Source of the DNA: Octopus vulgaris
Taxonomy: Eukaryota
Assembly (NCBI GenBank): GCA_951406725.2
Contig: OX597818.1
Span: 6,510,001 to 6,574,000 of the forward strand
DNA: 64,000 bases
Reading direction: 5' to 3'
Shown: positions 11,931 to 13,419 of the stretch, piece after piece
How the letters are laid out: each line of letters opens with the position of its first letter
How positions within the stretch are numbered: the stretch's first letter is position 1
The notes under the pieces: model-generated
Database searches by the model: none
What the model was told of the DNA's origin: nothing
The model's input: only the letters and a program-made list of their open reading frames with translations
Made by a program: the position numbers and the translations under genes

Positions 11931-12207
11931 ATTTTGCTCTATATTTAAGATATGAGGAATTATGTACATTATTTACATTCGACGGATATTTGTCATCATC
12001 TTGTTTGTTGTTAACATAACGCTTCAGCTGATTTACCCTCCAGCCTTCTTCAGGTGTCTTGGAGAAATTTCGAAACTGGGTTCTCATTCCTAAAGTATTT
12101 TTCGATGTTGCTGCTGCTGTAGTTGTTGTTATTATTATTATTATTATTATTATTATTATTATTATTATTATTATTATTATTATTATTATTATTATTATTA
12201 TTATTAT

Positions 12208-12848
12208 TACTCTTTACTCTTTTACTTGTTTCAGTCATTTGACTGCGGCCATGCTGGAGCACCGCCTTTAGTCGAGCAAATCGACCCCAGGACTTATTCT
12301 TTGTAAGCTTAGTACGTATGCTATCGGTTTCTTTTGCCTAACCGCTTAGTTACAAGGACGTAAACACACCAGCATCTTCAAGCGATGTTGGGGAGACAAA
12401 CACAGACACACAAACATACAGACACACACACACACACACACACACACACATATATATATTTCTTTACTACCCACAAGGAGCTAAACACAGAGGGGACAAA
12501 CAAGGACAGACAAACGGATTAAGTCGATTACATCGACCCCAGTGCGTAACTGGTACTTAATTTATCGACCCCGAAAGGATGAAAGGCAAAGTCGACCTCG
12601 GCGGAATTTGAACTCGGAACGTAACGACAGATGAAATGCGGCTACGCATTTCGCCCGACGCGGTAACGTTTCTGCCAGCTCACCGCCTGGCATATACATA
12701 TAAAACGGGCTTCTTTCAGTTTCCGTCTACCAAATCCACTCACAAGGCTTTGGTCGGCCCGAGGCTATAGTAGAAGACAGTTGCACAAGGTGCCACGCAG
12801 TGGGACTGAACCCGGAACCATGTGGTTGGTAAGCAAGCTACTTACCAC
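12208..12848 (-). mobile_element. SINE family A inserted in the (TAA)n of family H
   Basis: Reverse complement of the 17862-18273 copy, interrupted by a family B SINE. Confidence 0.9.
12459..12688 (-). mobile_element. SINE family B (Nin/Deu-domain-like), nested
   Basis: Reverse complement reads aggcggtgagctggcagaaacgtta..gagttcaaattccgccgaggtcgactttgcctttcatcctttcggggtcgataaattaagtaccag. It sits in the internal CA/TA tract of family A. Confidence 0.9.
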
Positions 12849-13419
12849 ATATTATTATTATTATTATTATTATTATTATTATTATTATTATTATTATTAT
12901 TATTATTATTATTATTATTATTATTATTATTATTATTATTATTATTATTATTATTATTATTATTATTATTATCCAGGTCACTGCTTGGAATCGAACTCGG
13001 AATCTTGGGGTTAGAAGCCCGGACTCTTAACCACTATGCCAATTATGGAGTGAATTTTAGGGTCTATAAATCTAATATTTTTCTATCCTTCCTTAATACC
13101 AGAGAAATATGCGAAACAATATCATTTAAGGAAATATGGACGTACCTCGTCGCAGGGAAGTTAAATAGCTGCATACGTTTGAGATTGTGAGATAAAAATA
13201 TTCAGGGATAGATAGCAATATGCTAGAGTACATATGAGAAGCTATAAGCGTGTGTGTGTGTGTCCATGCTTTTGTGGGCGCGCGTGTGTGCGCATATATA
13301 CATATATACATATGCACTCACACACTTACACACACACACGCTACCGATATAGGGAAAGGAAGACTGAACAGTCACTGGTGTTGCAATTAGCTACCCATTG
13401 GTTGGCAATGGTTACATGC

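Follow-up and report, generated by a model that had tools for sequence, protein, structure and literature searches.

A Penelope element of Octopus vulgaris with a tRNA-like terminal repeat, SINE-like solo copies and a putative Pol III promoter

SMalpha repeats of Schistosoma carry a tRNA-derived promoter. They have been called SINE-like (PMC8490949; bioRxiv 10.64898/2026.07.22.740005), and pseudo-LTR hammerheads, an optional tail and non-autonomous derivatives are all known from Penelope elements (PMC4209133; PMC11167929; bioRxiv 10.64898/2026.07.22.740005). The protein of the anole Poseidon element cuts both DNA strands in vitro and initiates reverse transcription internally, at two positions within the ORF start (PMC11167929). 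As a working rule, Pol II serves the retrotransposons that encode protein, and transcription by Pol III is confined to SINEs, which are short and non-coding; the source of that rule also argues that the autonomous partners of TRIM elements must use Pol II, and in the literature examined non-autonomous TRIMs are the sole elements known to carry a Pol III promoter in a terminal repeat (PMC10886601). Annotation of octopus repeats has yielded many unclassified SINE and Penelope families and, as far as that account goes, the element analyzed here is not described among them (PMC13282606). A search of the open literature, with Repbase, Dfam, subscription journals and supplements outside its scope, found no Penelope element with a tRNA-derived pseudo-LTR.

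The repeat in the window and in the genome

The DNA analyzed (the window) comprises 64,000 nucleotides of Octopus vulgaris contig OX597818.1. On its minus strand, the focal locus is ordered as head, (TAA)41, nested repeats, (TAA)27, and tail, and a second insertion with two inverted arms lies further along. The features of both are as follows.

13045..13100, minus strand: remnant of the 3' end of a Penelope ORF (last codons, stop, and a spacer of ~30 nt), upstream of the head
12974..13044, minus strand: tRNA-Arg-like head, a putative Pol III promoter (B-box scan; match to tRNA-Arg(TCG/TCT))
about 13041-13031 and 12996-12988, minus strand: A box and B box of the head (B-box scan)
12850..12972, minus strand: (TAA)41, first half of the spacer
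12210..12849 (inner repeat 12457-12688), minus strand: two dispersed SINE-like repeats nested in the spacer (self-BLAST)
12129..12209, minus strand: (TAA)27, second half of the spacer
11936..12128, minus strand: 'tail', a short leader and the ORF start with the long 3' end (tail profile columns 2-175)
12013..12058, minus strand: minimal type I hammerhead within the ORF start, with GAAA changed to GAAG in the focal copy
37091..44480, both strands: head-to-head twin insertion, a single event, with a short-ended arm (minus) and a long-ended arm (plus)
37084..37097 (left) and 44484-44497 (right), plus strand: target-site duplication of 14 bp
37091-37162, minus strand: tail of the short arm (profile match ends at column 151)
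37263..38561, minus strand: 5'-truncated LINE in the short-arm spacer (zf-RVT, ORF motifs, TAA target)
38556..38658, both strands: junction of the two inverted heads, 38556-38626 (minus) and 38587-38658 (plus)
38863..44197, plus strand: two LINEs in the long-arm spacer (RVT_1, zf-RVT), flanked by (TAA)n
44313-44480, plus strand: tail of the long arm with both hammerhead core motifs (profile match to column 177)

A preliminary description of this DNA had proposed a SINE made of a tRNA head with A and B boxes, (TAA)n tracts and a recurring tail. All of these parts are present at the focal locus, and the tail recurs at 37091-37162 and 44313-44480. The three places that it counted correspond to two events, since 37091-44480 is one insertion with a 14-bp duplication. 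Its end of the element at 13040 also falls short, as the copy continues as far as about 13100 and takes in the 3'-terminal part of a Penelope ORF. This extension (13045..13100, minus strand) aligns at 88-95% to the ORF-linked copies L054, L040, and L057 and also aligns to reference copy L210, and the 5' end of the focal copy lies at -68 from tRNA +1. The focal tail has an ATG at 12087 and ends at about ORF +154. The hammerhead motifs ascribed to the tail hold for one window copy, in which CTGATGA lies at 44360 and GAAACGTT at 44389; the focal copy at 11936-13040 reads GAAGCGTT, not GAAACGTT, and the ribozyme core is deleted in the 37091 arm, such that both core motifs are kept only at 44360.

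As had also been proposed, insertions in the spacer disguise the unit, with LINEs and SINE-like repeats parting head from tail. The two SINE-like repeats at 12210..12849 are evidently later insertions into the spacer, and self-BLAST matches them to 17878-18273, 4246-4571, and 32840-33071 in the window. The long-arm LINEs comprise a truncated (38863-39960) and a long (40038-44197) copy, and all three spacer LINEs of the window appear to be Dong/R4-like. TAA is the target of Dong elements (PMC3812793), a preference that the spacer LINEs fit, and LINEs also lie inside the spacer at L004, L028, L048, and L058. ARAGORN called no tRNA genes in the window, and Rfam scored neither the head, which RF00005 misses, nor the ribozyme of the family.

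The window holds several other elements. A canonical type I hammerhead at 36758-36804 (minus strand; RF00163, 45.5 bits against a 34-bit cut-off) is unrelated to the Penelope family. The 3' part of a Neptune-like Penelope lies at 27620-30406, with a GIY-YIG ORF at 28624-29418 (minus strand), an inverted pseudo-LTR of ~1 kb, and a hammerhead-like motif whose core reads UUGAAAA; it was rejected as a partner of the repeat, since its pseudo-LTR differs. Further Dong/R4-like LINEs occupy (TAA)n tracts at 50462-59309, without the head or tail of the family. A copy of SRP (7SL) RNA with an internal deletion of ~40 nt lies at 19505-19761 (plus strand; Rfam 163.8 bits), two mariner-like transposase copies that are 94% alike lie at 4790-6097 and 25903-27211, with several Tc1-like fragments elsewhere, and a CR1-like LINE fragment with a 328-bp tandem duplication lies at 49235-49884.

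Linkage of head and tail was then assessed genome-wide, as the preliminary description had suggested. With the tandem-array loci L029 and L030 left out, the partner part was identified on the same strand within 1.5 kb at 27/29 head-selected and 22/27 tail-selected loci. In 800 kb of unselected DNA we identified 75 (AAT)5+ tracts, of which 3 are bordered by a head, 4 by a tail, and 3 by both, where independence predicts 0.16 tracts bordered by both. The head-(TAA)n-tail linkage is real and far beyond chance, and uninterrupted copies with spacers of ~20 nt exist (e.g., L017, L024, and L025). We also considered the family as the seed of most (TAA)n tracts and rejected this, as it accounts for 4/75.

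The same 800 kb contained 7 loci with 11 tail arms, which extrapolates to ~25,000 loci in the 2.8-Gb genome (Poisson range 10,000-50,000). None of the 7 carries further ORF sequence; solo pseudo-LTRs are most of the copies. One locus (L029; G000:C2:2732884-2736057) is a tandem array of at least nine units of (TAA)n plus tail from which the head is absent, and adjacent hammerheads in it could form dimers like those of non-LTR retrozymes. Other minimal-hammerhead families were encountered in the unselected blocks (G000:C9:70040428-70040493, G000:C9:70051781, and G000:C12:30066492), one of them as an inverted pair.

The Penelope element to which the repeat belongs

Nine heads, that of the focal copy included, share upstream sequence, and this sequence translates to a Penelope RT thumb and a GIY-YIG-type domain. 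A search with this RT-bearing piece of the ORF recovered a head after the stop codon in 23/30 loci and a head or tail in 26/30, while a search with the N-terminal part of the ORF recovered 19/30 loci in which the tail runs directly into the ORF. In one natural copy (L219) the frame is open from the ATG of the tail via the hammerhead to the conserved N-terminus, and a relative with 55% identity has a similar N-terminus and reads similarly through its own ribozyme region. Complete head-ORF-head copies (L223 and L207) and tandem ORF-head-ORF copies (L185 and L188) were also identified. The order of the unit is therefore head-(TAA)n-ATG-hammerhead-RT-GIY-YIG-stop-head-(TAA)n-ORF start, with a length of 2.6 kb and a single ORF encoding ~830 aa. 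The 'tail' comprises the first ~50 codons of this ORF, including the hammerhead, and the head and spacer occupy most of the non-coding gap of ~160 nt between stop and start.

These observations bear on the proposal of a non-autonomous SINE mobilized by Penelope RT/GIY-YIG. The proposed mover is upheld, and head and tail are indeed one unit. The proposed separateness is not, since the head and spacer sit within the autonomous element, nor was the tail borrowed from a partner, being the 5' end of the ORF itself. Collectively, they make it almost certain that the repeat combines the pseudo-LTR with the beginning of the ORF of an autonomous Penelope in the Poseidon clade, whose terminal repeat is tRNA-derived.

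The ORF matches RVT_1 at 6.8e-08. The Pfam GIY-YIG profile gave no score on P0001, and the nuclease call thus rests on motifs and homologs. A YVDD motif is present in most copies (D codon in 32/37), with three copies reading YVND, and the nuclease is not preceded by a CxxC finger. Identity of the protein is 66% to one relative, 55% to P0006, and 57% to a barnacle protein; it is 36% over 579 aa to Anolis P0074 versus 26% over 371 aa to the local Neptune-like ORF. From these pairwise identities, rather than a tree, Poseidon is evidently nearer than Neptune. The closest proteins (the P0008 cluster, P0003, and P0010), at 55-66% identity, include that of the barnacle, and horizontal transfer is a possible source of this spread. 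All of the 60 loci recovered with two divergent protein queries belong to this family, such that the genome offered no second Poseidon family as an internal control.

Direct or inverted pseudo-LTRs and partial tandems are present in the family. Copies differ by a median of 6.5% from the column majority (63 segments), the longest stop-free match spans 569 codons, and no young intact copy was seen. The tail stretch at columns 135-172 reads GT..AG, like a tiny intron. An intron of these 38 nt was considered and dropped, given the open frame through it in L219 and the similar reading of the 55% relative, and no reads skipping it were present among the joints listed. At the short 3' end of the tail (columns 135-152; e.g., L178, L186, and L201), the number of 9-nt units differs among copies, with the frame kept. 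At L017 (1297-1490), a piece of the ORF N-terminus of ~30 nt lies between two inverted heads.

The hammerhead has a 5-bp stem I, a 5-bp stem II, an extra A after A9, G10.1-C11.1, and an ACGU palindrome as stem III, with a predicted cut after GUU. A minimal type I form with an extra base at that position, this pair, and a palindromic stem III has been described (PMC4209133). In agreement with the preliminary description, the ribozyme is of the Penelope type; both core motifs and both stems are kept in 37/137 copies, stems I and II form when an intact copy is folded, and the core is also present in relatives. The predicted hammerhead would cleave only as a dimer or with the help of protein.

Two classes of free 3' end predominate. 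With tail-selected loci excluded, 69 ends are long (columns 170-178; about ORF +154), 50 are short (columns 138-156; about ORF +118 to +133), and 16 lie elsewhere, and RNA reads of two 2026 runs, which are not taken as evidence of expression, break off at both. Frequent inversions had been anticipated and are borne out by 41 head-to-head pairs (9 further pairs that continue into the ORF were dropped from the count), which comprise 32 long plus short, 5 long plus mid, 3 short plus short, 1 short plus mid, and no long plus long. The absence of target-site duplications had likewise been anticipated and is contradicted, as direct repeats of at least 9 nt, a few of them of low complexity, flank about half of the pairs (20/41), compared with 3.9% of 724 shuffled pairings. 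The two fixed ends match the two-start-site behavior of Poseidon with its optional tail of ~30 nt, and each strand would have received one RNA, primed at a different site on each. Short fold-back palindromes with a central ACG, or its flip CGT, occur at the 5' edge of the head (L002 1720-1810, L013, L025, L026, and L042) and suggest self-priming of cDNA at the 5' end of the RNA.

Transcription of the element

The focal head best matches the genome's tRNA-Arg(TCG/TCT), with a score of 52.5 against a shuffled maximum of 41. Among 10 anticodon types sampled, tRNA-Arg was best in 6/6 heads (scores 52-63; shuffled maxima 41-47), with other isotypes matching nearly as well. Both the A box and the B box are intact, and their spacing is normal. 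Where loci had been chosen by criteria other than the ORF, 61 heads were available: 48 have their start at -29 to +12 relative to tRNA +1, 8 reach back into the upstream ORF, and 5 begin within the head, a class that head-selected loci under-sample; 4/5 unselected heads start at the 5' edge. The starts spread over ~20 nt, and stalling of RT at structured RNA could mimic a start site. A TATA-like TTTATAAG lies at the ORF stop, about 28 nt before the head start, such that Pol II fits the start position too. By a loose pattern, a similar site is present in 10/22 relatives, and three copies that carry the ORF (L223, L224, and L219) begin at the head and lack the TATA-like site. No start site was visible in read depth, which is equal on both strands and is not taken as evidence of expression. 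tRNA-like matches near relatives L261, L293, and L294 were rejected, since they lie upstream of and outside the pseudo-LTR.

Runs of T stop Pol III. Among matches to host tRNAs, 26/30 have a T4+ run within 60 nt downstream. On the sense strand of 14 long copies of the element we identified 13 T4 runs versus 65 expected, each private to one copy, and no T5 versus 15 expected. No T4 run is common to the copies anywhere on the sense strand of the 2.6-kb element: in 63 segments, each T4 site is confined to at most 14% of copies, in contrast to 30 A4 sites that most copies share. In 13 control segments from the same genome (LINEs, other PLEs, and mariners), T4 was at or near expectation, with one short segment at zero. 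Among 80 Poseidon relatives from metagenome contigs T4 reached 1.52x expected, with 0/66 testable relatives at <=0.25x, and no tRNA was identified in the pseudo-LTR where the contig reaches it, many contigs ending early. The 32 T-poor relatives predict 5.6 T4 runs in 2,588 nt (P(0) = 0.004), and codon shuffling, which conditions on protein and codon use, predicts about 3.5 (P near 0.03); the test represents one independent ancestor that the copies share. G4 runs are also absent from the family, which counts against reading the T4 deficit as a sign of Pol III, though relatives under-use G4 (0.59x, P = 0.16) and its absence is ordinary for the clade.

The explanation that we favor, and consider probable, is an autonomous Penelope transcribed by Pol III via its tRNA-Arg-like promoter and shedding SINE-like solo repeats. 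We lean slightly toward transcription of the whole 2.6-kb coding element end to end by Pol III from a captured tRNA promoter. The sequence signs lend indirect support to the Pol III transcription proposed in the preliminary description and extend it to the full-length coding element. On balance, the coding strand may have been purged of terminators and the SINE-like progeny may derive from the element's own terminal repeat, with LINE and SINE combined in one unit.

Under Pol III transcription, initiation would occur a few bases before the tRNA-like sequence and, with no T4 met, the polymerase would read on past the ORF and the following repeat and enter the flanking DNA. Translation of this RNA would have to proceed without a Pol II cap, a requirement that counts against this reading. 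Pol III-type promoters can give translated reporter RNA, with caveats (PMC5703244). The RT-endonuclease would nick both strands of AT-rich DNA, as anole Poseidon does in vitro, and cDNA would be primed internally at two ORF-start sites. Priming in the first repeat of the transcript would yield a cDNA of ~280 nt ending at the transcription start, that is, a solo copy, from which the large excess of solo over full-length copies would follow. Priming in the downstream repeat would yield long copies, and two cDNAs, one per strand, would yield the long-plus-short inverted pairs. The (TAA)n spacer would later expand and draw in TAA-targeting LINEs and SINEs.

The strongest rival, possible although unlikely, is that the head is a passenger, a tRNA or tiny SINE that landed in the pseudo-LTR of a master copy, with Pol II driving the element and the lack of T4 due to chance. 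Pol II could act from the TATA-like site about 28 nt upstream of the start or from an internal core promoter, as in Penelope of D. virilis, which has an internal LINE-like promoter (PMC2377424); it would also solve the problem of translation, and the T4 test rests on one ancestor with P of 0.004-0.03. A chance passenger is, however, difficult to reconcile with a tRNA-like part and spacer that take up most of the ~160-nt non-coding gap, with intact and normally spaced boxes, with ORF-bearing copies (L223, L224, and L219) that start at the head without a TATA-like site, and with a T4 deficit approached by 0/66 relatives.

A division of labor, in which Pol III makes template RNAs and the protein is translated from capped RNAs that Pol II makes by reading through tandem or intronic copies, is improbable. 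It would yield a T4-free strand and a start at the head through its Pol III templates, and the tandem ORF-head-ORF copies (L185 and L188), the 8/61 heads that reach into the upstream ORF, and the poor translation of Pol III RNAs (PMC5703244) are in its favor. However, Pol III would be expected to read through as well, given that the repeat lacks a terminator.

The model of the preliminary description, a separate Penelope-mobilized SINE lineage with solo copies as the main sources, is very improbable. Solos do dominate (7/7 loci in 800 kb lack the ORF), each keeps the putative internal promoter, and a flipped leader (GT for AC) was identified by pattern in 2/46 edge-starting heads, with a few more by eye, which suggests that some copies came from palindromic copies. 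However, the autonomous unit holds the same head and spacer, the family comprises two sequence subtypes that are both ORF-linked, and no diagnostic base specific to solos was found, frequency shifts being confounded by the subtype of the query; a separate SINE lineage is thus not needed. In addition, the anole protein depends on 172 nt at the beginning of the ORF (PMC11167929), whereas solos stop at about +154. Some re-mobilization of solo copies may occur. Finally, two unrelated repeats sharing a (TAA)n preference, as the large insertions parting head from tail in the window might imply, can be dismissed given the uninterrupted copies and the linkage counts reported above.

Comparison with described systems

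If the element is transcribed by Pol III, a natural 2.6-kb Pol III transcript encoding an RT-endonuclease of ~830 aa would break the Pol II rule, would allow the translation of uncapped element RNA and the purpose of the Penelope hammerhead to be tested directly, and would show one route by which SINE-like families originate. Even under Pol II, tens of thousands of copies map the two-start-site mechanism of Penelope in vivo, each twin having one long and one short end, and what annotation would file under unclassified SINEs is a Penelope terminal repeat.

Like Poseidon PAc of Anolis carolinensis, the octopus element encodes an RT with a C-terminal GIY-YIG and has a hammerhead in the ORF start; in PAc, RT also starts at two internal sites, spaced by about 30 nt, which gives an optional tail, and both strands are nicked at AT-rich targets (PMC11167929). 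It differs in that the pseudo-LTR promoter of PAc is assumed, and that account makes no mention, as far as it extends, of a tRNA-derived segment or (TAA)n spacer (PMC11167929). Penelope of D. virilis likewise has a pseudo-LTR with promoter and start site and an optional tail, its TATA-less LINE-like internal promoter overlapping a 75-bp intron (PMC2377424; PMC8557442); the octopus element has an A/B-box segment instead and needs no intron.

The TRIMp3 elements Cassandra, Helenus, and Ajax have a small-RNA-derived Pol III promoter in the terminal repeat, comparable to the putative one here, and SINE-like solos (PMC10886601). These are non-autonomous LTR elements of 0.3-1.3 kb (PMC10886601), whereas the octopus ORF lies within the same unit, and in place of true LTRs, PBS, and PPT without an ORF, its pseudo-LTRs flank an RT/GIY-YIG ORF. 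SMalpha and the animal non-LTR retrozymes share short hammerhead repeats related to Penelope pseudo-LTRs (PMC8490949; bioRxiv 10.64898/2026.07.22.740005). They are non-coding and arranged in tandem units, with no tRNA head shared with an autonomous element reported in those sources (PMC8490949; bioRxiv 10.64898/2026.07.22.740005), and in the octopus such an arrangement is seen in the head-less array L029 and not in the family as a whole.

The solo copies are most similar in form to tRNA-derived SINEs (SINE2), with a tRNA head, A and B boxes, a length of ~300 nt, and tens of thousands of copies. Unlike SINE2, however, their 3' part is the start of the element's own ORF, the simple repeat is internal, inverted twins are common, and there are two fixed, non-repetitive 3' ends in place of poly(A) or a simple repeat. 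Rather than a lineage that shares only its 3' tail with a partner, they have a head and spacer that lie in the autonomous unit as well.
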